Shown piece after piece: positions 16,482-63,045 of a stretch of 64,000 nt of DNA (its first letter is position 1; every line of letters starts with the position of its first letter). Source of the stretch: Candidatus Lloydbacteria bacterium RIFCSPHIGHO2_02_FULL_50_18 (GTDB taxonomy: Bacteria > Patescibacteriota > Minisyncoccia > Phycocordibacterales > UBA6899); assembly GCA_001821395.1 (NCBI GenBank), contig MHLM01000012.1, forward strand, positions 84,107 to 148,106. Reading direction: 5' to 3'. Under the pieces are notes generated by a model, which was not told the DNA's origin, did no database searches, and saw only the letters and a list, made by a program, of their open reading frames with translations. The translations under genes and the position numbers were made by a program.

Positions 16482-17327
16482 ATGAAAACATTCAAACCAT
16501 TAACGCCTAGTCTGCGTAACACCGTCCTCACTCCCTATAAGGAGCTCCTCTCCGGCGATTCGAAAGCAATCCCGAAGAGTCTTACGAAAGGAAAGCGAAA
16601 GACCGGTGGCCGCAATAACCAGGGTCGCATCACCATGCGGCACATTGGCGGAGGCAACAAGAACCTGAAGCGCGATGTCGACTTCAAATACAAGAAGCGT
16701 GACGTCTTGGGTCGCGTCGAAGCGGTCCAGTACGATCCCTTGCGCACCGCATTCATCGCCCTCGTTGTCTACAAGGACGGAGAGCGCGTGTATGTCGTCG
16801 CACCGAAGGGGATGAAGAAGGGAGACACGATGATCACGAGTGAGAAGGCCGCCCCTACGGTAGGGAACCGACTTCCGCTCAAGAAGATCGCCGTCGGTAC
16901 CTTCGTGTACAACGTTGAGGTCCAGCCCGATGGAGGAGCAAAGCTTGCTCGCTCTGCCGGAAACTTCATCGAAGTCATCGCCAACGATATGGGCTACGCA
17001 TTCTTGAAGATGCCGTCATCCGAGGTCCGCAAGGTCCCCGAGAATTGTTGGGCATCGATCGGAGGAGCTTCGAACGATCAGCACAAGCTCCGCAAGGAGG
17101 GAAAGGCCGGTCGTAACCGCTGGAAGGGTATCCGACCACACGTGCGCGGTTCAGCCATGAACGCCGTCGACCATCCTCATGGAGGTGGAGAAGGCCGCAT
17201 GGGTCGCGGTATGCGACGCCAGAAGTCACGCACCGGTAAGTTCATCGGCAAGGGACAGAAGACCAGATCGCCGAAGAAGTATTCGAACGTGTTCATTGTC
17301 TCTCGCCGAAAGGTGGGCAAGAAGTAA
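16482..17327 (+). CDS. rplB: 50S ribosomal protein L2
   Basis: GGGNKNLKR...RSAGN...HPHGGGEGR are L2 motifs. Confidence 0.95.
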   Translation: MKTFKPLTPSLRNTVLTPYKELLSGDSKAIPKSLTKGKRKTGGRNNQGRITMRHIGGGNKNLKRDVDFKYKKRDVLGRVEAVQYDPLRTAFIALVVYKDGERVYVVAPKGMKKGDTMITSEKAAPTVGNRLPLKKIAVGTFVYNVEVQPDGGAKLARSAGNFIEVIANDMGYAFLKMPSSEVRKVPENCWASIGGASNDQHKLRKEGKAGRNRWKGIRPHVRGSAMNAVDHPHGGGEGRMGRGMRRQKSRTGKFIGKGQKTRSPKKYSNVFIVSRRKVGKK

Positions 17328-17333
17328 AAATTT

Positions 17334-17424
17334 TCGCGCATTGCTTTGTTGTCATCGTCGCGAACCCCGCTCGTCATATACGAATATGCCTCGGGAGGTA
17401 TCGCAACTCGACGCCTCGCACTGC
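17334..17424 (+). repeat. conserved structured intergenic element, copy B (after rplB)
   Basis: See copy A. It sits directly after the rplB stop. Confidence 0.45.
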
Positions 17425-17462
17425 ATCGAAAATATTTACTTCTTTCTAAGATTGAAGGAAAA

Positions 17463-17492
17463 CAAAACCGCTTACTAAGCGGTTTTGTTGTA
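17463..17492 (+). terminator. rho-independent terminator
   Basis: aaccgctta-ct-aagcggtt plus TTTGTTG. Confidence 0.6.
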
Positions 17493-17567
17493 TACAAGCA
17501 CTTATGTGTCAAAAGTTTTTATACATAAGAAAATTGACATTCTTATGTATGAGGATATAATACTTCA

Positions 17568-18654
17568 ATGAGTAAAAAACCAGCTATTGTCGAACCCCTC
17601 AAATTAGATGGCTTAGGGCTAGACTACAACAGGTTTGCAGAAGAACTTTCAACCGCCGAATATGCGCTCGGGTTAATTGAGGGTATGCAAAAAAACTACT
17701 AAACCCAAATCTTTTGATTAGTCCCCTAACCGCCAAGGAAGCAGCTGCGAGTTCTAAGATAGAAGGAACACAAAGTGATGTGTCCGATGTATTTATGTTT
17801 GAGGCGGGTGGGGAAACTAAACATGCAGATACACGTGAGGTTGTGAATTACCGTCGAGCAATGCGTTTGGCCATGACGGAGATTAAAAAAGGAAGAGAGG
17901 TAAGCAGTCATCTGGTAGAGACCCTTCACGGAGTATTATTGAAAGATGTCCGTCATATTGGCAATCTTGGAAAATATAGAGAAGGACAAGTTTGGATTGC
18001 CGAACGATCTGGTGATCCAATTGAGAAAGCGATATACGTCCCACCCGAGGCAATACACGTGCGCGGGTTGGCTCAGAATTTGATTGAATACATAAACGTG
18101 GGGAAGGAGAATGCATTGATTAAGGCAGGCGTTGCACACTATCAGTTTGAGGCAACTCATCCATTTGATGATGGGAATGGGAGAATTGGGAGACTCCTTA
18201 TTCCAATTGTGTTACACAGACATCAGAGATTGTCATCACCAATTCTTTATCTTAGCGGCTACTTTGATGATCATCGAGATGAATATATCGCGAGGCTCCA
18301 TGCATTGGATGATGGTGCTGATATGGAAGATTGGTTAAAATTTTTTTACATTCGGTTAGCCAGCAGCTCGGTCAAACACAAAAAATAATTGAAGGAATTT
18401 ATGAACTCTATGACCAGCTTAGACTTGAAAATAGGGGGATAAAATCACCATTCGTTATTCCCCTCATTGATATGATGTTTGAGATGCCAATTTTTACGTT
18501 GGCCATGGTGCAAGAATCAACTAAATGCTCGAGCTATATAACTGCATCGACACTAATTAAGAGAATGATTGATGCGGGTCATGTTGAAAATGTAGGAAAG
18601 GTTGGAAGGGAAAAGCTTTATGAATTCCGCTCGCTTGTAAAAGTATTAAAATAA
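17568..18654 (+). pseudogene. Fic/Doc-family protein interrupted by two -1 frameshifts at homopolymers
   Basis: HPFDDGNGRIGRLL is the Fic motif. The N-terminus (frame of 17568) stops at 17700. The middle is ORF 17714..18388 and the C-terminus is ORF 18331..18654. Frame switches occur at A7 (17689-17695) and T7 (18341-18347). Confidence 0.7.
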
Positions 18655-18782
18655 TCAATGAATCTGTCCTGGTAAGGAAATTAATCACAATTGATTTCAC
18701 AAAATTTTTACTTCCTTTACTTCCCACTGAAACCCATGTAGTTTGACGGGGGATTGATACGTACTTTAACAGGAGAAATCCG

Positions 18783-19440
18783 ATGAGTATTGGTGAAAAT
18801 GTTTTTGAGCGTACGGGTCCTTCGACCATGTCGGCGCGCGGTTTCTACGGCGCACTGGGATTGATCGTCGCGTTTGGGCTCTGGTTATCAAGTCTCGTGG
18901 CGGCAGAGTTCACTGCATGGCAGCCGTCACTCATGGTGATACTGCTTGTCGGGCTCGGCATCCCGATCATCGGCATTGTGATCGCTGCGAAGTCTGAGAC
19001 TCCAGCGATCTCATTCCTCGGCTACCTCATGGTGGCGGTGCCATTCGGGATGCTCCTGGGGCCAACGCTCAATCAGTATTCGCCCGAGGTCGTGCAAAAG
19101 GCGATGTTCTACACCGCGGCGACCACGCTCGTCATGGGTGCGGCGGGCGTGCTCTATCCGAATTTCTTTGCGCGGATCGGCGGCGCACTCTTCATGGCTC
19201 ATGGCACTCATCGGGCTTGTCGTTGTGCGCGTCATCGGCATCTTTATTCCCGCATTGGGCAACATGTCGGCCATCGACTATATTTCTGCGGGTATCTTCT
19301 CGCTTTACATCGGCTACGATATGTACCGTGCAAGTGCAATGCCGCACACGCTCGACAATGCCGTTGACGCCGCATTGTCCCTGTATCTCGACATCATCAA
19401 TTTGTTCCTCAGTTTGCTCCGGATATTCGGCAAGAATTGA
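18783..19440 (+). pseudogene. Bax-inhibitor-1/YccA-family membrane protein disrupted by a 7-bp tandem duplication
   Basis: The C-terminal frame encodes LYLDIINLFLSLLRIF, the BI-1 signature. tcatggc is tandemly duplicated at 19192-19198 and 19199-19205. Removing one copy restores a single 218-aa ORF. Confidence 0.65.
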
Positions 19441-19592
19441 TCGTTTCGTTTTAAACTCGGCATACGCCGGGTTTTTTGTTGCATGTATTTGTCACGATGG
19501 TTGATCTCAGCCTCGCGAGCTGGTGGTGTTGCGTCTCACAGCCACTTGTGTTTGTATGGTCACAGCGTTCATTTGATCACAAAGGAGAATTC

Positions 19593-20093
19593 ATGTTGCT
19601 CGACAAATTGGTTCCCGTTCTCGGTACGCCCATTCGCATTGGTGTACTTATGGAAAGCAGTGGCGATGGAACAAAAATACCATTTTTCCTCATCGATTTT
19701 GGTAAAGAGTATCCATCGATCGAACCGTTGATCGCCAGAAATGGCACAATGACGCTCGACATCGTACCGGATGGTGACCACTGTACTTTCCACGTCACTG
19801 GAGATCGGATGGTCAGCGAGCTCACTCCCGAGCTTTTGAATCGCGCGCTCGCCGCACCGCCTGAGACGAGGAACCAAGTATTGTTCGGGCAGGGAAGGCC
19901 CGAATTCGCTTCAAGTGTTACGCTTTCAGGCGAATCATGCGAGCAATTCATCGAAGCATTCACTGCAGGCGGCGGGTTCTGGCTTCTCGTCACGCTCAGT
20001 CAGTCCGGAACTCGATCCGTGATCGCTCCAGACGGTGAGATCATTCGTACTGAGTCGTGTTCGCGCTTGGAACTTGAGTATCTCTTGGGTTAA
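19593..20093 (+). CDS. hypothetical protein (166 aa)
   Basis: AAGGAG RBS at 19581. A strong terminator follows. Confidence 0.45.
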   Translation: MLLDKLVPVLGTPIRIGVLMESSGDGTKIPFFLIDFGKEYPSIEPLIARNGTMTLDIVPDGDHCTFHVTGDRMVSELTPELLNRALAAPPETRNQVLFGQGRPEFASSVTLSGESCEQFIEAFTAGGGFWLLVTLSQSGTRSVIAPDGEIIRTESCSRLELEYLLG

Positions 20094-20114
20094 GGTTTGC
20101 CGTGCAACACCCCG

Positions 20115-20150
20115 ACGTGTCGGGGTGTTTTTGTTTTTTCGGTAAATAAA
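20115..20150 (+). terminator. rho-independent terminator
   Basis: acaccccgac-gtgt-cggggtgt plus TTTTTGTTTTTT. Confidence 0.6.
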
Positions 20151-20168
20151 AACTCCGCAGATGCGGAG

Positions 20169-20528
20169 TCAGTCGGGCTTGAAAAGTTTTGCAAGAAGTT
20201 CTTGCGGGAGAATGTTCGGATCGAGCGGCAATGCATCCAATTCGTCAGCCGACCCTATCGTCTCTCGCGACTCAGCGATCTCGAGTGTGCGGACGAGGAG
20301 CAATATCAATGCAGTGATATATTGCCGGAATTCATCAGCGGTCTGCGTAGCTACCTCTTCGTGTGCACTTTTTGCACGCTCCCCGATCAGTTCAATGAGT
20401 CCTCCAAGAGAGGGATTAATTTCTTTTAATCGCAGTACGTGAGTCGTAATGTGTGCAATGAGGGCCGGCCGTAATTGTGGAAGTTCACGGCTTGCCGCCA
20501 AAACATCCAAGGGCATGACATGTTTCAT
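20169..20528 (-). CDS. hypothetical protein (119 aa), predicted all-alpha
   Basis: ORF is followed on the minus strand by the ctccgc/gcggag hairpin plus a T-run (20156-20178). No confident family. Confidence 0.4.
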   Translation of the reverse strand: MKHVMPLDVLAASRELPQLRPALIAHITTHVLRLKEINPSLGGLIELIGERAKSAHEEVATQTADEFRQYITALILLLVRTLEIAESRETIGSADELDALPLDPNILPQELLAKLFKPD

Positions 20529-20689
20529 GGATACTCCATGTGGTGAACAGTGCGCTTACTCTGTTGTACGCGCGAGCGTATGTTGTGTCAAGAAATAGCG
20601 ACTGCATCCCATTTTGTTGTTGAATGGAATGTTTCATCCCGCCCCGTCTGCTCGCTTTACATCTTTTATTGTTGCGTTAGAGTAAGCAT

Positions 20690-21010
20690 ATGTTTAACTT
20701 CAATAAAAAACCGATCCCTGAAGATCGAATAATGACGTGGGAGGAGGAGGCGACCTTCCCCATTGAGCTCCAAGAAGCAGCTCTCTCGAGTTTGATAGAA
20801 GTCGCACAGCGGCAAGGAGCATCTTCGGTCGATCTTGAAAAACAATTGAATACGATTGAGATCAAGAGACGGGTCATTCTCTGGCTCGGAACTTTTCCTG
20901 ATATAGCAGAGAAGAATGCTGCGATCGAACGGGCAAATGCGGAGGGTTTGCCGCCGGAGATATTCACTACTCCGGAGTTTGTTGCTCCGGAAGTTGAGAC
21001 GCTCCAATAG
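20690..21010 (+). CDS. hypothetical protein
   Basis: ORF only. A terminator-like hairpin lies at 21058-21090. Confidence 0.35.
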   Translation: MFNFNKKPIPEDRIMTWEEEATFPIELQEAALSSLIEVAQRQGASSVDLEKQLNTIEIKRRVILWLGTFPDIAEKNAAIERANAEGLPPEIFTTPEFVAPEVETLQ

Positions 21011-21057
21011 GCGGTGTGCCGTGGTCTTTTGACCTTGCCACCCCTGGTCTTTGAACG

Positions 21058-21090
21058 AAAAACCCGCTCATTAGTAGCGGGTTTTTGTAA
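21058..21090. terminator. bidirectional hairpin terminator
   Basis: cccgct-cattagt-agcggg flanked by A- and T-runs. Confidence 0.4.
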
Positions 21091-21918
21091 CAGAGCTCCC
21101 CTATTTCTTTCCTCCCTTCTTCGGCTTCTTTGCCTCCTTCTTGATGTTGTTGTCTCCGCGTCCCATGTTGTATGCGTCTATTGATAATATTGCACAATTA
21201 TATCATGACACAGCAAAACACCACCGCACATTTGTGCGGTGGTGTTTTGCTTGTTGTTATTTCACTACGACCTTCTTTGGCTTTTTCTTATTTTTCTGCT
21301 GTGCATTGTTTCCTTTTGCCATGACGTATTGCTTATACTGCTAATGAACGAACGTATCTTCAGTGTAGCAGATTTTCGTCATGACATGAAAATGCCCGGT
21401 TGTACCCATGTTGATAGTGGTCATACGGACCGACCCATGCTTATTTGCAAAAACAGGGGATAACTTTCACTACGGAAGGCGCTTTGAGGCTATAATGGTG
21501 ACAACATTTTCGCACATTACGCGCTGGGTGCTTTTGGAGTAAAAAGCGAGCAGGACGTAGTGTGAGAAGATCCACAAAATGGATCCTTATGCTATGTTCC
21601 AGCGAATGGACATATCGTTGCGGAGAAACAAAAACTTCGTTAACGGTAGAGGTTAGTCGTATATCTTTCTTATCAACATCGTGGATACGCGTTCGTTGCC
21701 TACAGCAAGGAATGTGAAAAGTGATGAAGAGAAGTACTCTGGAGCCAATTTTTATGAATCCGTTGTCGAGTGCTAAAAAGCAAAAGTAACGATCGCCAAT
21801 CGTCCTCCCGCATAAAAAAGTATCTGTAGTACTTTTTATGCCAGAGTGCATGCTCATCGAAAGATATCAACGAATTGTCATAGCGCCGCGTTCAGGCAAG
21901 AACGCGGCGTTATGTATT

Positions 21919-22041
21919 GAGGATTGAGAACATAGCAAATTTCTTTGTTGAAACATGAACATGCAAGCAAGCCGTACTCCGAGTACGGCTTGCTTGCATG
22001 TTCATGTTTCGTCTCGAACTTTGCATATGTTCTCAATCCTA
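21919..22041. repeat. about 123-bp nested imperfect palindrome with a near-perfect 59-bp core at 21951-22009
   Basis: aaacatgaacatgcaagcaagccgtactc-c-gagtacggcttgcttgcatgttcatgttt is flanked by the outer inverted repeat aggattgagaacata / tatgttctcaatcct. Confidence 0.7.
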
Positions 22042-22125
22042 AAGGATGAATGTCCAATCGCTACTGTTGCGATTTTTTTATTATCTGGCAGTCTGAGTAC
22101 AGAATGGTCTTCGAGGGAGGCAGGA

Positions 22126-22812
22126 ATGGTTCAAGCATCAGTCAACAAAGAGCAACTAGATAAGCTTCGAAATACTTATTGCGATGCAGCGCAGTACTTG
22201 GGTGTCCCACGCACAAGTGCAGAACGATGTTTCACGAAACTCGCGCAATACTATGCTGAACCGCATCGGCGCTATCATACGCTGGCTCATCTGCACCAGT
22301 GCATGGTTGAGTTTGCGGATGTAGTGTGGCACAGTCAGGATCCTGCGCTCATTGTCATGGCTATTTTTTACCATGATATTACGTACGACGTTCATCGCAA
22401 CGATAACGAAGCGAAGAGTGCGTTGTATTGGAAATTCATTGCCCGCCATGTACTCGAAGTGAAGAACGAAGGATTCATCGCCGAGGTCGCCCGATTGATC
22501 GAACTTAGCGGCGAACATCGTACGGACCCTGTCACTGATCCTGATGCCGCGCTCTTCCTCGACGTCGACATGTCGATTCTAGGAGCTGACGCACCGGAGT
22601 ACGACGCATATGCGGCCGCAGTGCGACAGGAGTATGCGCACTGCAGTGACGATGAATGGGCGTTTGGTCGCGTTGCGAAGTTCCTTGATCCGACCTTGTG
22701 TGAGGACAGAATATTTCTCACTGATATCTTTCGTCAAAAATATGAAGAAAATGCGCGCGCAAACCTGATGGAAGAGCGTTGCCGCTATCAAAAAAACCTA
22801 CCGCTCGCATGA
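22126..22812 (+). CDS. HD-domain metal-dependent phosphohydrolase
   Basis: Ordered H...HD...D motifs: YHTLAHLHQ, IFYHDITYD, FLDVDMSILG. GAGGGAGG RBS precedes the ATG at 22126. Confidence 0.55.
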   Translation: MVQASVNKEQLDKLRNTYCDAAQYLGVPRTSAERCFTKLAQYYAEPHRRYHTLAHLHQCMVEFADVVWHSQDPALIVMAIFYHDITYDVHRNDNEAKSALYWKFIARHVLEVKNEGFIAEVARLIELSGEHRTDPVTDPDAALFLDVDMSILGADAPEYDAYAAAVRQEYAHCSDDEWAFGRVAKFLDPTLCEDRIFLTDIFRQKYEENARANLMEERCRYQKNLPLA

Positions 22813-22824
22813 GCGGTTTTTTCT
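22799..22824 (+). terminator. rho-independent terminator overlapping the stop codon
   Basis: ccgctc-gcat-gagcgg plus TTTTTT. Confidence 0.6.
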
Positions 22825-22911
22825 TGACAAAGAGTATTTGTTGTGGAGAATCAAGAACGGCAGTCCCAATAGGGAAAGCCGTTCTTTTACAACCAACCGA
22901 AAGGATAACTC

Positions 22912-23760
22912 ATGAGCGAGATAGCCGAAAAAGTAAACCCATCGACCGATGGGCAGATGAAAGACCTCACCAGCGTTCTGGTGACCGCCATGCCCGATCA
23001 CGAAAAATTCCCACGGGAACAAATCGAGTATTGGATGAAAAACAAGCGCTTGCTCGCGGCAAAGGTGCGCGCAGTGCTTGAGGGGGCCCCACGTGGCCTT
23101 GGGCAAACAACGCAAGAAGTGCTGCAATCCTGGGAGCGATTTTATCGCGAGATACTCAAAATAAAAGTCGACTTCTCGGATATCGATACTCCGCCACGTT
23201 TTAGTGAATTTAAGGCCATTATTCCCGTGATCTCATCTATTTCCGCAGAAGAAATTGTCGGTTTACTCACGAAAAATTTCAATCATGAATTTAGTTTGAG
23301 AGACTTTCAGTGCAACTTAGATGAGCTCTCGCACTTGCGTCCGGAGGGGCACTATGCGGTTTTGCACCGAGGTACTCGAATGCCCGATCTCGATATGCAG
23401 ATCACCAGGCAGCGAGCTACTGAGGGTGTGGTCGCGAGGTACACTTGCGTACATCCTCCCGTCGATGCTTCTTCATTTATGAATCCAAGGGAGTACATCC
23501 TTTTTGCGGCGTTCAACGTCTGGATGACATCTGGTCGTCACTCGTCACCATGGTTCGACTACGACATTGCTGGCACTAATTTTATTGGCGAGAGAGCGCT
23601 CCCTGGAACCGCGTTCCCACAGATGGATGCTTTTGATCGACCACTGGCCGCGTGTTGCCACTCTAGCAATAACCATGAGTGCCACATTGAACACCCTTGT
23701 GGCTTTGAAAATTCCTACGGGCGACTTGTGAAAGTACTTTCTTCCTTGCGCATCGCATAA
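22912..23760 (+). CDS. hypothetical protein, paralog of 30268..31089
   Basis: AAAGGA RBS. Collinear similarity to the other copy (W..F..+D...IIP ... Y.V.HRG...PD). Confidence 0.5.
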   Translation: MSEIAEKVNPSTDGQMKDLTSVLVTAMPDHEKFPREQIEYWMKNKRLLAAKVRAVLEGAPRGLGQTTQEVLQSWERFYREILKIKVDFSDIDTPPRFSEFKAIIPVISSISAEEIVGLLTKNFNHEFSLRDFQCNLDELSHLRPEGHYAVLHRGTRMPDLDMQITRQRATEGVVARYTCVHPPVDASSFMNPREYILFAAFNVWMTSGRHSSPWFDYDIAGTNFIGERALPGTAFPQMDAFDRPLAACCHSSNNHECHIEHPCGFENSYGRLVKVLSSLRIA

Positions 23761-23793
23761 CGTGTTTATCACCACCGAGAAATCGGTGGTTTT

Positions 23794-24864
23794 TTATATG
23801 ATGAGCATTCCGTCGCCGAATGAGTAGAAGCGGAATTTTTCCCTTATGGCGATGTCGTAGAGCGCGAGGATGTCGCGCTTCGCTCTTTTGTGTTTGAGGA
23901 GTGCGTCGACCAAGAGCATGAGTGATGAGCGAGGGACGTGGAAGTTCGTAATAAGCCCATCTGCAATCTTGAATTCGTACGGCGGGTAGATAAATATATT
24001 CGTAGGCTTAGAACATTGCTCAACACTCCAAGGTTCCACCTTGGAGTGTTGGATTGCAGCGGATTCGAGGGTACGCATGGCGGTAGTGCCGACGGGGATG
24101 ATGGGAATACCCGCCGCTTTTGCACTATTTATTTTTTTTGCGCTTTCCTTTGTGATATCGAGATACTCCGCAAAAAGTTTTTTACTTTTGAAATTTTGTT
24201 CATCAATCGGCGCAAAGGTACCCGCACCTACATGAAGCGTGACCTCCGTACGCGTGATGTGTTCACGTTTCATTTTTTCGAGTAAGCGATCGGTGAAATG
24301 GAGCGACGCCGTTGGTGCTGCAATTGACGCGGGATATTTCGCGAGAATACTTTGGTATTTTTCACGCAATGTGTGCTCGGACATCGTATTGCCCTTGATA
24401 TATGGGGGTATTGGCGTCACACCCTCTTTCTCGAGCAAACTCCAAAGGCTGCCTTTGGATACACTGGGATTGAAAAAGAAAAATTGCTCTTCTTGTCTTT
24501 CGACCTCAAGGTGCGCCCCTGACTTAAAGAAGAGTTTGGCACCGGGAAGGATCTTGCGGTCGACCACTCCTTTAATAGAGATGTCGCCGGGACGGAATTC
24601 ATTCATCATGAGAAGCACCTCGATCTTGCCGCCCGTTTCTTTGGAAAGCCACAATCGGGCAGGAACGACCTTTGTATCATTAAAGACAAGCAGGCTGGGT
24701 TTGGGGAGATATTGGTCAATATTCCGGAAAACATCAAAATGCACCTTATCAGTTTTCGTATCGTAGACGAACAATCGAGCGGAATCTCGCGGAGAAGCGG
24801 GCTCATTGGCGATAAGCCCCTCAGGGAGGTGGTAGTTATAATCATCGAGAGAGATCATGTGCAC
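23794..24864 (-). CDS. queA: S-adenosylmethionine:tRNA ribosyltransferase-isomerase
   Basis: VFNDTKVVPARL, GGKIEVLL, IPPYI, AAPTASLHFT, TLHVGAGTF, VGTT..R.LES, TNFH.P.S.L are all canonical QueA blocks. Confidence 0.9.
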   Translation of the reverse strand: MHMISLDDYNYHLPEGLIANEPASPRDSARLFVYDTKTDKVHFDVFRNIDQYLPKPSLLVFNDTKVVPARLWLSKETGGKIEVLLMMNEFRPGDISIKGVVDRKILPGAKLFFKSGAHLEVERQEEQFFFFNPSVSKGSLWSLLEKEGVTPIPPYIKGNTMSEHTLREKYQSILAKYPASIAAPTASLHFTDRLLEKMKREHITRTEVTLHVGAGTFAPIDEQNFKSKKLFAEYLDITKESAKKINSAKAAGIPIIPVGTTAMRTLESAAIQHSKVEPWSVEQCSKPTNIFIYPPYEFKIADGLITNFHVPRSSLMLLVDALLKHKRAKRDILALYDIAIREKFRFYSFGDGMLII

Positions 24865-24928
24865 ATGCTATCAGGTGAAGCAATATGGGCAAGCTTTTCT
24901 ATGTTTAGCAACGTATTTTCGACTTTTT

Positions 24929-24951
24929 TTGTCAAGGTTTAACCTTGACAA
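24929..24951. promoter_or_regulatory. second copy of the TGTCAAGGTT-N-AACCTTGACA palindrome, upstream of queA
   Basis: ttgtcaaggtt-t-aaccttgacaa lies 65 bp upstream of the queA start on its template side. Confidence 0.4.
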
Positions 24952-25034
24952 TTTTAAGTGGTGCGTTTGCGGCTACGATAATATTCCACAGATAATCCAC
25001 AGAGTTATCAACAGCAAAATGTAATAATTATGGC

Positions 25035-25069
25035 AAAAAATAACCCCAACCCTTCGGTCGGGGTTGGGG
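25035..25069 (-). terminator. terminator for minus-strand gene 25074..25313
   Basis: ccccaaccc-ttcggtc-gggttgggg hairpin with a plus-strand A-run, which reads as a T-run on the minus strand. Confidence 0.5.
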
Positions 25070-25073
25070 TAGG

Positions 25074-25313
25074 TCAGTCGACCTCTGTGATGGTAAACTT
25101 TTCGCTGCAGGAGTAGAGGAAGCCCTCCTCGAGTCCCCAACAGAAAAAGAACATCCCGTCGCCCTCCTTGGGGGGCACCCCATCCTTATTCGAAACGGTC
25201 GTTACTCCACCTTCGCGAGTGACTTTGACGTCAACGTAGGACCTGGTGGAACTTAAATCTTCCATAAATTCTGCGTGCTCATCTTCGGTGAGTATCGCTG
25301 TGGCTATTTTCAT
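25074..25313 (-). CDS. hypothetical small protein (79 aa)
   Basis: AAGGAG RBS 6 nt before the ATG. A terminator lies downstream. Confidence 0.5.
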   Translation of the reverse strand: MKIATAILTEDEHAEFMEDLSSTRSYVDVKVTREGGVTTVSNKDGVPPKEGDGMFFFCWGLEEGFLYSCSEKFTITEVD

Positions 25314-25476
25314 TGTTGCTCCTTCGGTTTGGTTTTTGAGTCTGACATGACATTAGCACGAAAAATATTTATGTCAATAATTTGATATTCCTATATTTTA
25401 TAACATATTTTGACTTAATTCGAACGCCACACCTAGGAAGTGAGGGAAATAGGTCTTTTGGGAGACTTCACGGGCT

Positions 25477-25585
25477 TGAAATACGCACCTGGGAGCGAGG
25501 TATTGCTTTTTGAGGGGCTACGGACCGCGGCGGCGGGAGTTTGAGGAAAAAGTCAGCAGACTTTTATCCGTGCCCTCAAAAAGCA
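25477..25585 (+). repeat. hairpin-forming repeat element, copy 1 (family TTGCTTTTTGAGRG...CYCTCAAAAAGCAA)
   Basis: It is the reverse complement of 29479-29636 at both ends, each about 45 nt at over 90% identity. It contains an internal long-range inverted repeat. Confidence 0.6.
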
Positions 25586-25750
25586 ATGCCGAGCGTATAC
25601 ATTGACTTCTTTGGGCTGTTTAAGTAGTATCTAGCACAAGGTATTTCAAATAGTTTCACTCTACGCCGTGGGAGGATCAGGGGCGTTGGGAAATCTATAT
25701 CGAAAAATCGCCAAATCGCCCAAAAGGCTTAGAAAAACTTTTATAAACAT

Positions 25751-26095
25751 ATGACAAGATCACTAAAAAAGGGACCATACGTGTACGAGAAATTGCTCAA
25801 GAAGATCGAGGGCAAGAAGCCGGATGTTGCCGGTGTAATTAAGACCTGGGCGCGTGCGTCGCAGATCTCACCTGAGATGGTGGGGCATACCTTCGGTGTG
25901 CACAATGGCAAGGACTTCATTGAGGTAAAGGTCAGCGAGGAGATGGTTGGACATCGTCTCGGTGAATTCTCAGGAACCCGCAAATTCTATCGTCACGGTG
26001 GAAAGATGCAAAAGGACCTTGAGGCTAAACAGAAGGAAGCCGAGATCTCTGCAGCAAAGGCCGCAAAGGGAGCTGATGCCGCTAAGAAAAAATAA
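25751..26095 (+). CDS. rpsS: 30S ribosomal protein S19 (K/A-rich C-terminal tail)
   Basis: KKGPYV...[25 protein letters not shown] match the S19 core. Confidence 0.95.
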
Positions 26096-29719: not shown

Positions 29720-29750
29720 AAAACCCGCTCATTTGAGCGGGTTTTGTTCT
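29720..29750 (+). terminator. rho-independent terminator
   Basis: cccgctc-atttg-agcggg plus TTTTGTT. Confidence 0.6.
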
Positions 29751-29833
29751 TTTGAGAATAAGCTCAATGAGGCCCTTTACTTTTTTGAAAAAAAGCAGAA
29801 TCTGAGAAGAGTTGTTTTTATTGAGAGGTAGAG

Positions 29834-30202
29834 ATGCAGATCCGCTTTCGGGTTCGCGAACTCGCTTTGGCAATTCGGGAATTTCTCGTCGGTGTCTTTG
29901 TCTTCTTCCGGCGGTCAGTGAAAAGAAGGGATGAAGTACGATATTGCTTCATGTGCCAAGAGTACGGCCATCCGCTTACTAAAGTATCGTTCATGATCCG
30001 CACAGAAGCGCGGAGGGGGGCAAAGAAGGAGGCGCCATTCTCGGTCATGGAACTCCACGTGTGCAGTATGCATCATCCTGACAAGGACGTCGTCGGGGCA
30101 GACCTGTCCGAGGAAACACGATCATTTCTTCGAAACAATGATGCTGCCGCAGCGTGTGTCTACTATTACCATGATCCCGATCATGTTTTCCGCCTCGGAT
30201 AA
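29834..30202 (+). CDS. hypothetical Cys/His-rich protein (122 aa)
   Basis: GAGGT RBS. Its 3' end plus terminator are duplicated at 31107-31179. Confidence 0.35.
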   Translation: MQIRFRVRELALAIREFLVGVFVFFRRSVKRRDEVRYCFMCQEYGHPLTKVSFMIRTEARRGAKKEAPFSVMELHVCSMHHPDKDVVGADLSEETRSFLRNNDAAAACVYYYHDPDHVFRLG

Positions 30203-30216
30203 GAGGTGGTTTTTTT
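30143..30216 (+). repeat. 73-bp direct repeat, copy 1 (includes terminator hairpin ccgcctcggataagaggtgg plus T7)
   Basis: About 93% identical to 31107-31179. Confidence 0.7.
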
Positions 30217-30267
30217 ATACTCCGTACGTTATCCAAAGGTAATTGGACAAAGTAGCAAAAATGCAAT

Positions 30268-31089
30268 ATGGTCAGTACGGAAAAGCTAGCCCCGGGCTCC
30301 ATCGTGGGAATATTCTTTGAGAAGGAACAGTCCATGCAAACAGATAAGACAGACTCGGCTTCTGCAACGCCGGAACAACTCGCGATGCTTACTGGCGAGT
30401 TCGCTCTGGCTCTGGCTAAGGCAAAGCCATCCGCCGCTCTCATGCAGCATCTGCTCCGAAGCAGGGTGGCAACACGGAAGATGATCATCGCGGCCCTATC
30501 GACGCAGGGAAGAATCAGTCACACGATTGATCCTCGCCTCGTGCAGTGTCAAAAGCTATGGGAGAAACTCGGAGTGGTGCTCGACTGCATGGACAATCTT
30601 GTCATGCCGGAAATCCCATCCGGTTGGCGCGGTATCGCCATCATCCCACCACTCACAAATGAAGCACTCCTCGCTCTTTGCAAAAAGCACTTTCCGATAT
30701 GGTCGAAACGCGATGGCCTCGACAATATCTTGAGAGAACAAAATCGACCACGATGCACCTACGTCGTCGTCCATCGTGGTGGTATGGAGCCGGATAAAGA
30801 GCATCGTAATAAGAGTCATGATGATGCGGTCAATGAAGGTTTGTATTTTTTGACGCTGAAGGAGCGTATCTGCATCGAGCTTCTTCATTTCATAAAAACA
30901 GGCAAGCATTTTGATGTTAAGGGGACCATGACAGTCACATCCTCGCTGACGATGGGTGGCGATGCGTTTAATGTGTATTGGAGTTCGCATATTCAGACGT
31001 TCATTGTGGATGGTTGCCGTACGGTGACTTCGTACTCGACGAATGGGCTTCGTCAGGCCGTTTTCTTTGGATTGAAGCCTTACCGTTGA
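30268..31089 (+). CDS. hypothetical protein, paralog of 22912..23760
   Basis: Flanked by the 73-bp direct repeats. The start may be the ATG at 30334 (GAGAAGGAA RBS). Confidence 0.5.
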   Translation: MVSTEKLAPGSIVGIFFEKEQSMQTDKTDSASATPEQLAMLTGEFALALAKAKPSAALMQHLLRSRVATRKMIIAALSTQGRISHTIDPRLVQCQKLWEKLGVVLDCMDNLVMPEIPSGWRGIAIIPPLTNEALLALCKKHFPIWSKRDGLDNILREQNRPRCTYVVVHRGGMEPDKEHRNKSHDDAVNEGLYFLTLKERICIELLHFIKTGKHFDVKGTMTVTSSLTMGGDAFNVYWSSHIQTFIVDGCRTVTSYSTNGLRQAVFFGLKPYR

Positions 31090-31106
31090 TTGCTGAGCCG
31101 ACACTT

Positions 31107-31179
31107 GTGCCGCAGCGTGTGTCTACTATTATCATGATCCCGATCATGTTTTCCGCCTCGGTTAAGAGGCGGTTTTTTT
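31107..31179 (+). repeat. 73-bp direct repeat, copy 2
   Basis: See copy 1. It ends in ccgcctcggttaagaggcgg plus T7. Confidence 0.7.
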
Positions 31180-31211
31180 ATAAGACAAATTTTTGACTTT
31201 CCTGAAAGTTA

Positions 31212-32261
31212 ATGTATGGTGAGCACTGGTTTTGTACTTTTATATCTAACCTGAGGAAAGACATGGACATTAATACGTCTGACCCCGGTGACAATGGACG
31301 ACGGGGTATCGATAGGGGTTTGAGCGACAGGCGCGAGTATGACCTTGCCAGGACCCTCATTGGAACGTTGCTGTTCGTTAAGTTATATCGAGCTGCAGGC
31401 GCTCTCAAGTTCCTGAAGGCGCTCAAGGTTCTTGGTCCTCTCATGATGGTGGTCTCCGGAATTTTCACGGGAGAGATCTATTCTCTCGTCATGAAAACCT
31501 CCCTTGTTGTGGGGCTGCTATTTTCTCTTGCGGTGCATGAGCTCGGTCACTATGTTGCGACGAAGCGATGCGGCCTCCGCGCGGCGTGGTGGCTCTTCAT
31601 TCCATTCGTCGGAGCGTGGATGGAAGCGCCGGATTTTCGTTCCCGCAATGACGAGGCGTGCATCGCTTTTGGTGGTCCTTTCATCGGAGGGATATTTTCT
31701 CTGATATTGTTCTGTGCATGGTTGGTACTACCGCTGTCCAATGAATGGGGAAATATTCTCTTCACCATAGCTTTCCTTTCGACGATGTTGAATCTCTTCA
31801 ATATGATCCCGCTTTCGCCGCTTGATGGCGGAAGGATCACCGAAGGGGTGAGTATCTGGTTTCGCGTCGCAGGGTTCGTTGTATTGATCACGCTTTCTCT
31901 CTATACCGCTCAAGCATCGATGGCTCTTGTGTGGTTGCTGGTGATGAGTGAAGTTCGGATGTCCGCACGATTGAGGTTTGTCACGGCGGCGCTCATGCTG
32001 ATCCTTATGGCGGTACTCATTATACTGGGGTATCACGGGCCTTCCGCTCTTGAAGATTGGTGCTATTTTGCGGTCGGCGTATGGCTGCTCTCCGCTTTTT
32101 ATAAGCGTTGGAAGAATCCGCCCCCTCGGCATGATCATCGCAATGTCAGATTGACTCCAGCGGAGCGAAAAAAATGGAAACGTTCGTACTGTGGGCTCCT
32201 TCTTTTCCTCATCGTATTGTTTGCCGCATTTTTCCCTCACATGAGCAAACTTGCTTTTTGA
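31212..32261 (+). CDS. peptidase M50 / site-2-protease-family membrane metalloprotease
   Basis: HELGHYV (HExxH) in a TM helix and NLFNMIPLSPLDGGRI, the S2P LDG motif. Multiple TM helices. Start may be 31263. Confidence 0.7.
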   Translation: MYGEHWFCTFISNLRKDMDINTSDPGDNGRRGIDRGLSDRREYDLARTLIGTLLFVKLYRAAGALKFLKALKVLGPLMMVVSGIFTGEIYSLVMKTSLVVGLLFSLAVHELGHYVATKRCGLRAAWWLFIPFVGAWMEAPDFRSRNDEACIAFGGPFIGGIFSLILFCAWLVLPLSNEWGNILFTIAFLSTMLNLFNMIPLSPLDGGRITEGVSIWFRVAGFVVLITLSLYTAQASMALVWLLVMSEVRMSARLRFVTAALMLILMAVLIILGYHGPSALEDWCYFAVGVWLLSAFYKRWKNPPPRHDHRNVRLTPAERKKWKRSYCGLLLFLIVLFAAFFPHMSKLAF

Positions 32262-32267
32262 GTTGAA

Positions 32268-32298
32268 TAACTCGCCGATAATCTCGGCGAGTTTTTTG
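32268..32298 (+). terminator. rho-independent terminator
   Basis: ctcgccga-taat-ctcggcgag plus TTTTTT. Confidence 0.6.
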
Positions 32299-32368
32299 TG
32301 CATTGTTGAATTGCATACTGTTGAGAGCAGTACTATACTTTATGTACATTAATATATATCCTCTCGTC

Positions 32369-35113
32369 ATGTCCTCAACAAAAAGGTTTTTTTCACTGTG
32401 CATGTTTGGCATATTCCTCCTTCCCTCACTCGCCGCTGCTGACACCACCATCTCCTCCAACATCACCACGAATCAAACCTGGACCACGGCAAGCAGTACA
32501 TACATCGTCACCACCGGTATTGCGATCAACGCAGGTGTCACCCTCACCATCAACCCCGGAGTGATCGTGAAGTTCAGCGGGATCATGTCCGGCATCACCG
32601 TGAATGGGACGTTAAACGCCCAAGGAACCGCACTTGCACCGATATACTTCACCTCATACAAAGATGACACCGTGAATGGTGATACGAATGGCGATGCGAC
32701 CTCAACAACCCCAGCCGGGGGCGACTGGTTTTGGTTCTCCATTCCCGCGGGCGGAGCAGCAACGATCGACAACGCGATCATCCGCTATGGCGGCAGTTTC
32801 AATACTGCGCTGTTCTATAATAACGGAGGTAACCTCACCCTTGCGAACTCCGAAGTCGCATCCAGTTCCAAGTATGGCATCTGGACATATTCCGGCATAT
32901 CAACTATCGCTTCTTCCACCATCGATCACAACGCGAGCTACGGTATCTATCATACGGGAGGCACCACTACCGTTGCCACGAGTACGATCCGCGATCACAG
33001 CACCTATGGCTTCTCCACCCAGAGCGGAACTGGAAATCTCATCCTCACCAACAATATCTTTTCCGGTAATCTTCAAGGTGGAGGACTGGTGAACTTGGCC
33101 GACAGTGCAAACGTGACCCATACGAACAACAGTGCAACGGGGCAAGGAAAGGGTGGCATGGTCATCTATGGTTCTCCCAATAAGGCACAGACATGGGGAG
33201 CAGACCCGCTCTTCCCGTATATTATCTCAACGACAACAGGGTCGGTCACCGTGAGTACGTATGCCATCACCCTCAATCCCGGTGCGATCATCAAATTTGA
33301 AGGAACAACCGCAGGGTTTGCGGGCAATTCAGGCACCTTCACTGCCGCGGGAACTACACAATCTCCCGTATATTTCACCTCCATCAAGGACGACACCGTG
33401 GGTGGCGACACCAATGGGAATGGCACGGGTACCACTCCATCTGCGGGGGATTGGGATGGTCTCATGTCCCAGAACTATAGCAATCTCACGTTGAACAATA
33501 CCGTGATCCGCTACGGTGGCTCAAAGATGCTCTATGCCAACGGTGTGAACAGCGTCATCAACCTATTCAACTCAGAAGTTGCCAGCAGTTCAAGTGCGGG
33601 AATCTATAGTGATGCAGGAACAGTGAATGCCACCGGTACGAGCATTCACGACAATCGCTACGGCTATTATCACGGCAATGTCCAAGGCAATAGCATTGCC
33701 CACATTGCCAATGCCGGCAACACCATCTATCGCAATAGCACCTATGGTATTTATAACAATGGAACCGCCCTCGTGAATGCCGAGCAGGTATACTGGCCGG
33801 CGACAACAACGGGAGCGACGATGAATGGGCCGTATAGTACAAGCACCAACCCAGGGGGGCATGGAGATGCTGTGCTCCCCACATACATCGACTTTGATCC
33901 TTGGCTCTCTACCGTGTCAGGAAATATCGCAACGAATACCACGTGGACTGCTTCGAGTACATATGTCATTGATGGAACGCTCACGGTGAATGCGGGGACG
34001 ACACTCACGATTCCTGCAGCTACGGTGGTGAAGTTTGCCAATGCAACCTCAAAGATCAGCGTCTCGGGGAGCTTGGTTGCAGATTCTGCAGCGTCTTCCT
34101 CACGAATATATTTCACGTCAATCAAGGATGATGCGGTGGGAGGGGATACCAATGGAGATGGGGGTGCGACTTCACCTGCTGCGGGAGATTGGGATGGGAT
34201 CAAAGTGAATGCGGGAGGCGTTGCAACACTGAACTTCATTTCTGCTCGCTATGGAGGAAGTGGTGGGCCCATGCTTTGGAACTATGCAGGAACGTTGGAT
34301 CTTAATAATTCAGAAATTGCGAGCAGTAGTAATACGGGAATCTTCCATTCCTCGGGTGCCACGCAATTAATAGTTCGAGCTTGTGATATTCACAACAATA
34401 ATTATGGCATATTTGTTGACGACAGCTCGCTTGTGACAATCGGCAGCAACAATATTCATGGCAATGTTGTGGGAGTAAATGATAATACTTTTTTTGGGAT
34501 TGATATTAGATATAACTATTGGGGTGATGCAAGTGGCCCATATAATTCTGTCTATCACCCGACTGGGACCGGTGATACCATCGTTGAGAATGCGTTTACG
34601 CTTGTTTCTCCATGGTTAGACAGGGTACATTATTTGTATTTCTTAAACCACAATTTGGTTACTTCGATTACCAGTGGAGTATTGGATTGGAATTGGTTCA
34701 ACGGCACATCTACTTATGCGACGGCTTGGTATGCAGGAGTTAACACATGGAACACATATGGAAATTCGGTTGGAGGAGTTACTTTTGCAACAAGTACCAC
34801 GGCAACATCCTCAGCTGATTTACTCGTTTTGGACATGGCTAGCTCATCTAGTGATTTATTCTATGCCATCTACGACCCCTTTGTTACTCCTACGGAAATT
34901 AAATTTAACCCTTATTATATGAACACTGCAACTGCTAATATAAGGCAAATGACCACAACTCATGAACTTGGTCATGCCCTAGGGCTTTGGCACAGTTATA
35001 TAAACAACATCATGATTGCATCCCCAGCTTCAACTACTGGTCAGGTTTCACTGGGCACTCAAGATATGTTGGATTACGATTATTGTTGGGTGAGTCATAA
35101 TTGTGGGATATAA
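32369..35113 (+). CDS. secreted beta-helix repeat protein with C-terminal metzincin-type zinc protease motif (914 aa)
   Basis: Signal peptide MSSTKRFFSLCMFGIFLLPSLAAA. Three modules of about 250 aa each end in (I/A)RYGGS and carry repeated NSEVASSS, IYFTS(I/Y)KDD, GDTNG and GDWDG motifs. C-terminal THELGHALGLWHS matches HExxHxxGxxH. Confidence 0.6.
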   Translation: MSSTKRFFSLCMFGIFLLPSLAAADTTISSNITTNQTWTTASSTYIVTTGIAINAGVTLTINPGVIVKFSGIMSGITVNGTLNAQGTALAPIYFTSYKDDTVNGDTNGDATSTTPAGGDWFWFSIPAGGAATIDNAIIRYGGSFNTALFYNNGGNLTLANSEVASSSKYGIWTYSGISTIASSTIDHNASYGIYHTGGTTTVATSTIRDHSTYGFSTQSGTGNLILTNNIFSGNLQGGGLVNLADSANVTHTNNSATGQGKGGMVIYGSPNKAQTWGADPLFPYIISTTTGSVTVSTYAITLNPGAIIKFEGTTAGFAGNSGTFTAAGTTQSPVYFTSIKDDTVGGDTNGNGTGTTPSAGDWDGLMSQNYSNLTLNNTVIRYGGSKMLYANGVNSVINLFNSEVASSSSAGIYSDAGTVNATGTSIHDNRYGYYHGNVQGNSIAHIANAGNTIYRNSTYGIYNNGTALVNAEQVYWPATTTGATMNGPYSTSTNPGGHGDAVLPTYIDFDPWLSTVSGNIATNTTWTASSTYVIDGTLTVNAGTTLTIPAATVVKFANATSKISVSGSLVADSAASSSRIYFTSIKDDAVGGDTNGDGGATSPAAGDWDGIKVNAGGVATLNFISARYGGSGGPMLWNYAGTLDLNNSEIASSSNTGIFHSSGATQLIVRACDIHNNNYGIFVDDSSLVTIGSNNIHGNVVGVNDNTFFGIDIRYNYWGDASGPYNSVYHPTGTGDTIVENAFTLVSPWLDRVHYLYFLNHNLVTSITSGVLDWNWFNGTSTYATAWYAGVNTWNTYGNSVGGVTFATSTTATSSADLLVLDMASSSSDLFYAIYDPFVTPTEIKFNPYYMNTATANIRQMTTTHELGHALGLWHSYINNIMIASPASTTGQVSLGTQDMLDYDYCWVSHNCGI

Positions 35114-35124
35114 CATTGAAAACC

Positions 35125-35853
35125 ATGAACAAAGATATAAAAGATATAATAATCCTTCTTACTGCACTCCTGCTCTCTGCCATCGTCATTGCTGGAATAT
35201 ATTACAGAGCAAAAAGAATACCCGAAGAAACTCCAGGAACCTTGAAAAGATATCAGCTCCAAGGAACACCTGATCATCCGGCGATGTTTTATCCTACCGA
35301 TCTGACTAAAGATATAAACCTATTGGGCTCATCTCATGATGTTTTCATAGGAAAAGTCATTTCTCAAACTGGTGACAAAGAAACTCAGATTGGACCACGC
35401 ACACAATATTCGGTGGAAGTTATTGATAATATTAAGGGTAAGTTAAAAGATATTGTAACCATTGACATGCTGGGTGGTTATGACAAAGATGGCAAGTTGG
35501 TAGTAATCGAAGAAAATGATTCAACTGATTTTCTCCTTAAACCAGGCTCAACTTACCTCTTTGCTACCCGTTATAACGAAGAAGAGGATTGGTATACTCT
35601 AATTTCTCACCCGAATGCTCGAAAAATTATAAGTACAGATAACACAAAAAATGAAGCCGCTCTCATGGCTCTCATCGACCAAGACGAAAAGGTAAAATCC
35701 TTTGAATCCGCATACGCCCATGAAGTTCTCCTCGACGCCGACATCGCCCACGGAAATACTCGTAACTCCTTCCAGTCTCTCGCACCAGCGGAAAAAGCCG
35801 CCGCCCAATCCCGCGCTGATGCGGCAAGAGCCTTGCTTGAGGCAATGCAGTAA
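35125..35853 (+). CDS. hypothetical N-terminally membrane-anchored protein
   Basis: MNKDIKDIIILLTALLLSAIVIAGIYY TM anchor. Its 5' region is duplicated at 36093-36276. Confidence 0.45.
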   Translation: MNKDIKDIIILLTALLLSAIVIAGIYYRAKRIPEETPGTLKRYQLQGTPDHPAMFYPTDLTKDINLLGSSHDVFIGKVISQTGDKETQIGPRTQYSVEVIDNIKGKLKDIVTIDMLGGYDKDGKLVVIEENDSTDFLLKPGSTYLFATRYNEEEDWYTLISHPNARKIISTDNTKNEAALMALIDQDEKVKSFESAYAHEVLLDADIAHGNTRNSFQSLAPAEKAAAQSRADAARALLEAMQ

Positions 35854-36092
35854 GATGCTTCTGCGGGGGTATACTTATTTGTGAACACAACGGCTCATGA
35901 ACAAAAAAATACTAAAATACACACTTGTCATCTTTGGGATATTCCTGCTCGGAGGCGTCGCGTTGTCGATCCATTTGTTCATCCAAAGTAAATTTGGTGT
36001 TTACGCTCCTCTAGATCGCGGATTTCCGGTAAGGACATTCCATCCAACGGGTATTAGTATTGATCAACCCAGCATTTGAATGGATACCTATC

Positions 36093-36276
36093 ATAATTGT
36101 GGGATATAACATTGAAAACTATGAACAAAGACATAAAAGATATAATGATTCTTCTTATTGCACTTCTACTCTCCATCGTCGTCATTGCTGGAATATATTA
36201 CGGAATAAAAAGTACTCAAGGAACTGTAGTTTCAACATATTCTCATCAGGGAACGCCTGAAAATCCGGCAATGTAG
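36093..36276 (+). pseudogene. truncated duplicate of the 35096-35290 junction (gene fragment encoding MNKDIKDIMILLIALLLSIVVIAGIYY...)
   Basis: About 80% nucleotide identity over about 185 bp. It includes the last 20 nt of the upstream gene (HNCGI stop) and the first 51 codons of the downstream gene, then a stop. Confidence 0.4.
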
Positions 36277-36791
36277 AATTTCATAGAAAACAATAATTAT
36301 GGAAGCTCTAAAAAATGAATTAAAGAAAACAATGGTCGTATGGAGAGATGCGTTAATCTGAGAAAAAAGATTTGCTAATCTGAAAAAGCTATTCCTCGTT
36401 ATTTTGGGTGTGGCTGTGTTTATCATTATCTTTCCGATGCCAACGAGGTGCAGGATAGAAAATCATGGAGCATATAGGCCGGCTAACGATTTAGTAATTG
36501 GTGCATACGTGGTTCGTGATTGTTACCCACCAAACCGTGCTGAATTTTGGCAGAACCCACAATTGAGTTTTGAATTTCGCTGGTTATTTGTTCCCACGTT
36601 AGACAGTATAACTGGTCATCGAGGTGTCAGTGTAATAAATATCCATCTATAAGGTAATCCCACATTCGCGTAAGCAATAAAAACTGCTACAAGGCGGGTC
36701 TTTGTTTTTTGTCTGGGCTATTCCTCGCGAGCACTAAGGTGTTCGCATATTGCTGGTCTGCGATAATCTAGTCTTATATAATAGACTCATA

Positions 36792-60286: not shown

Positions 60287-60287
60287 A

Positions 60288-63044: not shown

Positions 63045-63045
63045 T

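Follow-up and report, generated by a model that had tools for sequence, protein, structure and literature searches.

A Fic gene in three reading frames in Candidatus Lloydbacteria is probably a recently inactivated pseudogene

A gene of the Fic family in a Candidatus Lloydbacteria genome from groundwater is laid out over three reading frames, with breaks at two homopolymers. Is it read through nonetheless, by slippage of the ribosome or of RNA polymerase, is it switched on and off within the population, or has it been lost? An earlier note on this DNA had set several such explanations side by side, along with that of a plain sequencing error. We analysed the window, a stretch of 64,000 nucleotides that contains the gene, and compared the locus with its copies in public assemblies and with intact homologs. 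With a probability of roughly 0.8, the gene is an ordinary, recently inactivated pseudogene, SoFic-like and of class II, whose loss of function we infer from its sequence.

A Fic gene in three successive frames

The Fic gene spans positions 17568-18654 of the forward strand and consists of three successive reading frames, with switch points exactly at a run of seven adenines (A7, 17689..17695, + strand; site 1) and a run of seven thymines (T7, 18341..18347, + strand; site 2). Re-reading of the sequence confirms the coordinates that had been given for both switches. The three-frame layout itself also stands, in agreement with matches to the Fic_N and Fic profiles and with intact homologs.

The first segment (17568..17702, + strand, frame 0) starts with ATG at 17568 and comprises 44 codons, MSKKPAIVE...GLIEGMQKNY, that align with the N-termini of intact homologs. 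It ends as ...ATG CAA AAA AAC TAC TAA, with the stop at 17700-17702. As previously noted, the zero frame contains A_AAA_AAC here, at 17690-17696, which makes site 1 a canonical X_XXY_YYZ heptamer in its incoming frame.

The second segment (17696..18388, + strand) lies in the -1 frame and opens with CTA CTA AAC CCA... (LLNPNLLISPLTAKEAAASSKIEGT...). It encodes LLNPNLLISPL...WLKFF, followed by the out-of-frame tail YIRLASSSVKHKK and a TAA stop at 18386-18388. This segment carries an inhibitory motif, S62-x-x-x-E66-G67 (17750-17767), together with the Fic core, whose active-site motif HPFDDGNGRIGR (18158..18193, + strand) fits HxFx(D/E)GNGRxxR and is aligned to HPFIDGNGRTGR of SoFic. The third segment (18346..18654, + strand), a further -1 frame, encodes the C-terminal region, (L)HSVSQQLGQ...SLVKVLK, up to the stop at 18652-18654, and aligns with the C-terminal part of SoFic. 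In contrast to site 1, site 2 reads AAA TTT TTT TAC in its incoming frame and is no canonical X_XXY_YYZ heptamer.

No single uninterrupted ORF covers Fic_N, core and C-terminal region, given the stops at 17700 and 18386, and the same holds for all 19 copies of the locus described below. An alternative genetic code is irrelevant to the breaks, both premature stops being TAA. The intervals in which a shift could be productive are tiny. At site 1, the interval extends from a stop of the -1 frame at 17678 to the end of frame 0 at 17700; at site 2, it extends from 18319, after which the third frame is open, to the end of the second frame at 18386. Both intervals are made up essentially of the A and T runs.

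The assertion that A8 and T8 would restore one ORF proves correct: adding one A and one T gives 362 codons. The repaired protein of 362 aa matches Pfam Fic_N (PF13784) with 83.9 bits (gathering cutoff 26.7; E 8e-24) and Pfam Fic (PF02661) with 63.9 bits (cutoff 24; E 3e-17). By both profiles and by its active-site motif, it is a member of the Fic/Fido family. Peptides predicted from it to span the junctions would be …GMQKK/NLLNPNLLISPLTAK… at site 1, in the forms GMQKKLLNPNLLISPLTAK or GMQKNLLNPNLLISPLTAK, and …DWLKFFLHSVSQQLGQTQK… at site 2.

Intact Fic proteins of Patescibacteria (361-362 aa) share 70-74% identity with the repaired protein at 99-100% coverage (E about 1e-177). Because of these matches and those to Pfam, the three-frame Fic gene is real, far beyond chance. 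Aligned by MAFFT with 34 intact homologs, the repaired protein passes through both sites without a gap. At site 1, where QKK is invariant, the window has ...GLIEGMQKKLLNPNLLISPL against ...GLLEGSQKKLQNPxLLISPL in the homologs; at site 2, where FF or FY followed by L or F is conserved, it has ...DWLKFFLHSVSQQ against ...EWLKFFLxSVSEQ.

The earlier note had asked for a comparison with orthologous Fic genes, and it reveals intact relatives that lack the breaks. The present allele is the only one split by frame among the 120 relatives that match the middle fragment best; nearly all others are 345-379 aa long, and two shorter ones, P0035 (288 aa) and P0136 (327 aa), were compared at the protein level. 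We could read both sites at the DNA level in three intact homologs. Site 1 is CAA AAG AAA CTC, CAG AAA AAA CTT and CAG AAG AAG TTA; site 2 is AAA TTC TTC CTT, AAA TTT TAT CTC and AAA TTC TTT CTA. At neither site do these three homologs, which come from unrelated genomic contexts, have a heptamer or a long homopolymer.

Among proteins of solved structure, the repaired protein resembles SoFic, the class II protein adenylyltransferase of Shewanella oneidensis (PDB 3eqx, 3zcn, 9tc4). SoFic is about 372 aa long and has the same layout; it gives one continuous alignment with the 362-aa repaired protein over residues 32-358 (E 4e-30), and the two have in common the active site HPFxDGNGRxGR and the C-terminal region. 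The relationship is nevertheless distant, and SoFic is a single chain whereas the window gene is broken into three frames. With NCBIfam NF046030, the SoFic equivalog model, the repaired protein reaches 148.8 bits where the cutoff is 550: by these comparisons it is SoFic-like in architecture, not a SoFic equivalog.

Class II Fic proteins are defined by an (S/T)xxxE(G/N) motif that lies in the same chain as the Fic core, on its N-terminal side. In the window, S62-S-K-I-E66-G67 (SSKIEG) aligns with SSEIEN of SoFic and is encoded on the same fragment as the core. The intact protein would thus be a SoFic-like class II Fic, made of Fic_N, an autoinhibitory SxxxEG helix, a core with HPFDDGNGRIGR and a SoFic-like C-terminal region. 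The earlier description of a toxin-like AMPylator overstates the case, since an inhibitor, predicted from the SxxxE(G/N) motif, is built into the protein.

Frame breaks in the DNA and a broken neighbour

Indel errors typically occur at homopolymers, and restoring one base to each run gives a perfect ORF. It was therefore natural to suppose that the true sequence is A8 and T8 and that the gene is intact, its breaks being an artefact of sequencing or assembly. We looked for further copies of the locus. The 44-aa N-terminal, 224-aa middle and 107-aa C-terminal fragments all have exact copies in a public protein collection, from several sources; they are named there from Candidatus Lloydbacteria MAGs, as OGZ06300.1/OGZ09371.1 and OGZ06301.1/OGZ09372.1. 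No fused allele (A8 and/or T8) occurs among the hits listed from a collection of 15 billion proteins, where the only 100%-identical match is the 224-aa fragment; a fused allele would have ranked first in this search.

At the DNA level, we gathered 19 copies of the locus, all of them assembled contigs, which belong to 14 sample or assembly accessions and come from Logan per-run assemblies, megahit-style k141 contigs in ENA, JGI and the original ANAN16 scaffolds. The A run is A7 in 14 of 14 accessions and the T run T7 in all 12 that reach site 2; these 14 accessions apparently represent a single clonal population from a single groundwater system, and part of them may be built from shared reads. 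Sequencing runs that carry the locus include SRR2090153, SRR2090155, SRR2090157, SRR3989344 and SRR1658344. Over stretches of up to 6.7 kb, the loci show 100% identity to the window; only three short contigs deviate, by 2-9 mismatches that mostly lie close to contig ends or in front of the gene, and one contig end is adapter-like. Scanning metagenome contigs with a pattern of variable A-run length returned a single contig, identical to L004, and no new tract length. In a collection of genome contigs, from which the species is apparently absent, neither the peptide pattern nor the exact DNA pattern with a variable A run found a match.

The window as a whole is also informative. It contains 34 homopolymers of at least 7 bases, 21 of which lie inside uninterrupted ORFs; such runs are therefore normally read in frame. 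Of these 21, 19 are A/T 7-8-mers, with 8-mers in queA and in the ORF 58455-59651. The core genes for EF-Tu, S10, L3, L4, L23, L2, S19, S3, L16, S8, L6 and IF3 are intact, and the earlier statement on the ribosomal-protein genes nearby is correct.

Next to the Fic gene lies a gene for a membrane protein of the Bax1-I/YccA family (18783..19440, + strand), which is itself in two frames and matches Pfam in two pieces of 38.5 and 65.1 bits. The frame is lost at a 7-bp tandem duplication, TCATGGC TCATGGC (19192..19205, + strand), and not at a homopolymer. When one copy of TCATGGC is removed, a 216-aa ORF results, to which Pfam gives one full-length match (110.6 bits, profile positions 13-207 of 207). 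The duplication is present in every locus that covers 19192-19205. Judged by its sequence, it is an unambiguous inactivating mutation, and one that neither sequencing error nor recoding can explain. The frameshift in this adjoining gene had been missed in the earlier note.

Taken against the idea of an artefact, the identical sequence under 14 accessions from different pipelines, the 19 other A/T 7-8-mers that stay in frame within ORFs and the nature of the neighbouring lesion, a 7-bp duplication instead of a homopolymer error, leave that idea with next to no credit. The frame breaks are reproducible in the DNA and are not an assembly error. The homopolymer undercalls that had been offered as an option are effectively refuted at the consensus level, by the uniform A7 and T7, the lack of any A8 or T8 allele and the 19 in-frame A/T runs.

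Recoding, phase variation and separate products

A gene whose breaks are real may still be expressed. Full-length Fic could occasionally arise if the ribosome shifted by -1 at A_AAA_AAC and again by -1 at the T run, or if RNA polymerase inserted an additional A or U at the two runs. The two breaks would then work as a 'double lock', so that only very small amounts of a potentially harmful AMP-transferase would be made. Several features fit this scenario. The site 1 heptamer is canonical and in frame 0, a stop follows two codons on and the heptamer is preceded, at a distance of 6 nt, by GAGGG. The conserved QKK/L and KFFL junctions would come out the same or almost the same with either kind of slip, and the gene is otherwise undecayed, its strong promoter and putative operator intact. 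Slippage can rescue genes whose ORF is interrupted at A/T runs, as described in PMC1088944, and the 'savior' indels described in PMC5009743 count on the same side.

The likeness to established systems goes only part of the way. Programmed -1 sites such as A_AAA_AAG of dnaX and those of IS1/IS3-family transposases share with site 1 a zero-frame X_XXY_YYZ heptamer and a nearby 0-frame stop; the window differs from them in having no downstream stimulator, no conservation and the need for a second, non-canonical shift. We folded the 50 and 80 nt after each site and compared them with shuffled sequences: in this simple folding, as opposed to an explicit pseudoknot search, z-scores are +0.2 to +1.0 and no stimulatory structure emerges. 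GAGGG is not specific to frameshifting, because it encodes a conserved E-G pair and is found in intact homologs too. At site 2, only a P-site slip could work.

The heptamer itself is weaker than it seems. In E. coli, A_AAA_AAG is described as shifting far more readily than either A_AAA_AAC or U_UUU_UUA (Atkins et al., PMC5009743), and the heptamer at site 1 is a weak one there; A_AAA_AAC is 'textbook' mainly for mammalian ribosomes. Moreover, any deletion in CAAAAAAAAC creates the heptamer automatically, and the heptamer alone is for that reason no evidence for recoding.

Transcriptional slippage meets a similar difficulty. The genes with runs of 9A or 9T that are rescued in this way (Baranov et al. 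2005, PMC1088944) resemble the window gene in that an ORF broken at poly-A or poly-T is restored by one additional RNA nucleotide. According to the same source, slippage-prone A/T runs are visibly selected against from a length of about 9 nt in many bacteria, depending on the organism. The runs of the window are 7 nt long compared with the typical 9, and A/T 7-mers are common here inside intact ORFs, essential genes included.

Further points against recoding are that two inefficient events would be needed on the same message, that the neighbouring gene is clearly mutated and that the arrangement occurs in no relative, among the 120 best by protein and the three homologs at the DNA level. Beyond the heptamer, the programmed frameshifting once put forward for this gene thus gains no positive evidence: no structure lies downstream, the sites are not conserved and site 2 is non-canonical. 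We consider low-level recoding unlikely. That the Fic enzyme of this reduced-genome CPR bacterium is deliberately held behind two slippage-dependent breaks, with traces of full-length product and stochastic expression at very low dose, we consider a little less likely again; were it true, the pristine promoter, operator and coding sequence would reflect ongoing selection, not recent inactivation.

Slipped-strand phase variation would make contingency tracts of the two runs, with ON (A8/T8) and OFF (A7/T7) cells within the population. Both breaks do fall at homopolymers, the substrate of slipped-strand mispairing, and Fic proteins would be plausible targets for stochastic expression. Against this, no variant of tract length appears in the assembled contigs (14 accessions for the A run, 12 for the T run), and the protein-collection hits include no fused ORF. 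Both tracts would have to switch together for the ON state; 7-base tracts are short for contingency loci, and the relatives have no tracts at these sites. As an option for this locus, phase variation fails at the consensus level through the absence of tract-length polymorphism among the accessions, and we hold it to be very improbable.

It could also be asked whether the pieces are expressed and function separately, or whether the 224-aa middle piece, with inhibitory helix and core, does so alone. Gene callers predict ORFs of 197-224 aa and 60-107 aa, and the middle ORF has both the inhibitory and the catalytic motif. However, no Shine-Dalgarno-like sequence precedes TTG 17714, ATG 17792 (the start of the 197-aa call) or TTG 18331, no such split exists among the 120 best relatives and the cuts run through regions in which the alignment with SoFic, a single chain in its structure, is unbroken. 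We give this proposal hardly any weight.

A recent pseudogene in a genomic island

The Fic gene is the first gene of an accessory island of about 8.4 kb (17328-25750), inserted between rplB (16482-17327) and rpsS (25751-26095), which also holds several ORFs without family matches, plus queA on the opposite strand. Its G+C content is 41%, compared with 49% for the window, and intact homologs contrast likewise with their own genomes. The intact Patescibacteria Fic genes are single ORFs in unrelated neighbourhoods, while the window gene lies in three frames in the rplB-rpsS island. Since the homologs sit in entirely different surroundings, the Fic gene is a mobile accessory gene, and it takes its own control region along.

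This region is well preserved. Downstream of rplB, a hairpin (17461..17489, + strand) with 14-nt perfectly complementary arms, followed by TTTTGTTGT, is a putative terminator that probably separates rplB from the island. A predicted sigma-70-type promoter, TTGACA-16 nt-TATAAT (17534..17561, + strand), matches the consensus at 12 of 12 positions and has the same layout in homologs. Its -35 box is bracketed by a perfect inverted repeat of 11 nt, ATACATAAGAA / TTCTTATGTAT (17521-17531 and 17540-17550, + strand). Upstream of three intact homologs in unrelated genomes, the repeat is ATATAAGAA / TTCTTATAT; compared with these, the window copy is altered on both arms in such a way that the palindrome is retained. 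The repeat (17521..17550) is a candidate operator. Intact Patescibacteria Fic genes (P0001, P0003, P0005, P0020 and others) have the same palindrome around their TTGACA -35 box, and their -10 box lies equally close to the ATG. Because this spacing is only 6 nt in the window, the Fic mRNA is probably leaderless.

What history could have led to the present sequence? Synonymous codon choice in the lineage would have created two 8-base runs, CAA AAA AAA CTA (QKKL) at site 1 and AAA TTT TTT TTA (KFFL) at site 2. Replication slippage would then have removed one base from each, A8 becoming A7 and T8 becoming T7. Two one-base deletions are the most parsimonious history, because the repaired protein is continuous with its homologs and with SoFic at both sites. 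The first loss would end translation after 44 codons and the second would split off the C-terminal 103 codons; both deletions appear to be fixed in the sampled population. The loss of a functional Fic product is deduced from the 44-codon truncation and from the lack of recoding signals.

Independently, the Bax1-I gene was destroyed by its 7-bp tandem duplication, and selection on this part of the island therefore appears relaxed. Three frameshift lesions thus affect two adjacent accessory genes while the core genes of the window are intact, which points to a local relaxation of selection. Together with breaks that recur in every assembly and are absent from intact relatives, the broken Bax1-I gene favours the genuine pseudogene in a decaying island that had been among the options first considered. 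In the Fic gene, the ORF is disrupted by comparison with intact homologs, and the disruption is real in the DNA.

The best argument against a pseudogene is how little else has changed: the repaired frames are free of stops, and the catalytic and inhibitory motifs, the promoter and the putative operator are all intact. At alignment columns conserved in at least 90% of homologs, the repaired protein has 12 mostly conservative deviations; the same count is 13-27 in the intact outliers P0032-P0036, so the test does not discriminate for relaxed selection. Population dN/dS is inapplicable to loci that carry no usable sequence divergence. Homopolymer indels arise faster than substitutions, and for this reason an otherwise pristine gene is compatible with a very young pseudogene. 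It fits low-level expression through slippage equally.

Elsewhere in the window, a codon-usage screen and Pfam scans of the overlapping ORFs at 62799-63998, 60095-61235 and 21955-23760 yielded no convincing further split gene. The ORFs 21955-22812 and 22912-23760, considered as one split gene, are separate genes with a terminator-like hairpin between them. Nor does 22779-23081, with its A7 at 22790, bridge two gene halves: a stop is followed by the hairpin, and the next ORF comes with an RBS-like sequence, AAAGGA, of its own.

If recoding were nonetheless true, a CPR bacterium would control a Fic enzyme by recoding at two sites, which would be unusual; none of our results favours this. For the recently inactivated pseudogene that we prefer, the consequence is one of annotation: the GenBank fragments OGZ06300.1 and OGZ06301.1 and their counterparts, now hypothetical or Fido-domain proteins, should be treated as one frameshifted pseudogene, and Bax1-I likewise. 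A canonical-looking heptamer at a break is expected by chance when homopolymer slippage made that break. Slippery heptamers at homopolymer-derived frameshifts should therefore be viewed with caution and not be taken as recoding signals.

Two accessory insertions in the ribosomal-protein cluster

The ribosomal-protein gene cluster, in S10/spc-type order, is broken up by two insertions of accessory genes, each about 8 kb long. The first, between rplB and rpsS (window 17328-25750), carries the Fic gene, a Bax1-I gene, unknown ORFs and, on the opposite strand, queA. The second separates the L5 region from rpsH (window ~29740-37600); its products include an M50 peptidase, a beta-helix protein of 936 aa and a VKOR-like protein. 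Codon-usage scores of the ORFs in the first island (window 17.3-25.7 kb) are only 0.03-0.07 per codon, compared with 0.15-0.33 for core genes, and the Fic gene has a G+C content of 41%, against 49% for the window; both values fit a foreign origin.

The frameshifted Fic gene (window 17568-18654, plus strand) adjoins a second pseudogene, of the Bax1-I/YccA family (window 18783-19440). The latter is disrupted by a 7-bp tandem duplication (TCATGGC twice) at window 19192-19205: once one copy is deleted, the gene again forms a single 216-aa ORF, which has a full-length match in Pfam.

Variant contigs and homopolymers

Among the public contigs carrying the Fic allele, L014 (ENA ERZ4903125, 896 nt) has two base differences, equivalent to window 17764 and 17766. 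Both fall in the inhibitory motif of the Fic protein, changing E66 to D and G67 to A (KIEGT to KIDAT); the A7 and T7 runs are both retained. These differences could be a strain variant, in a pseudogene that is evolving neutrally, or they could be noise from the assembly. Three other contigs, L018 (ERZ28564302 scaffold_184504), L020 (SRR2090153) and L024 (ERZ978281), diverge from the window upstream of ~17350-17380 or after ~17899. In L018 a radical-SAM gene is joined to the Fic N-terminal region, and L024 starts with the adapter-like TCCGATCT. The divergence of these three is likely a chimeric or short-contig artefact; possibly, they are structural variants.

The longest G/C homopolymers of the window are a C9 run at 54669-54677, intergenic, after a 1743-aa ORF ending at 54622, and a G8 run at 60699-60706 (C8 on the coding strand), within an intact infC ORF.

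Fic promoter and candidate operator

A perfect inverted repeat, ATA[C/T]ATAAGAA ... TTCTTAT[G/A]TAT, flanks the Fic -35 box TTGACA on both sides. Together with the promoter it spans window 17521-17561, and it is conserved at three intact Fic homologues from unrelated contexts (L008, 5952-5983; L009, 5950-5985; L010, 5950-5983). Compared with their copies, the window repeat is altered in both arms, its palindrome nonetheless being retained. The -10 box ends only 6-9 nt upstream of the ATG, which suggests that the Fic mRNA is leaderless. The repeat looks like a candidate autoregulatory operator, which the C-terminal region of Fic may possibly bind.
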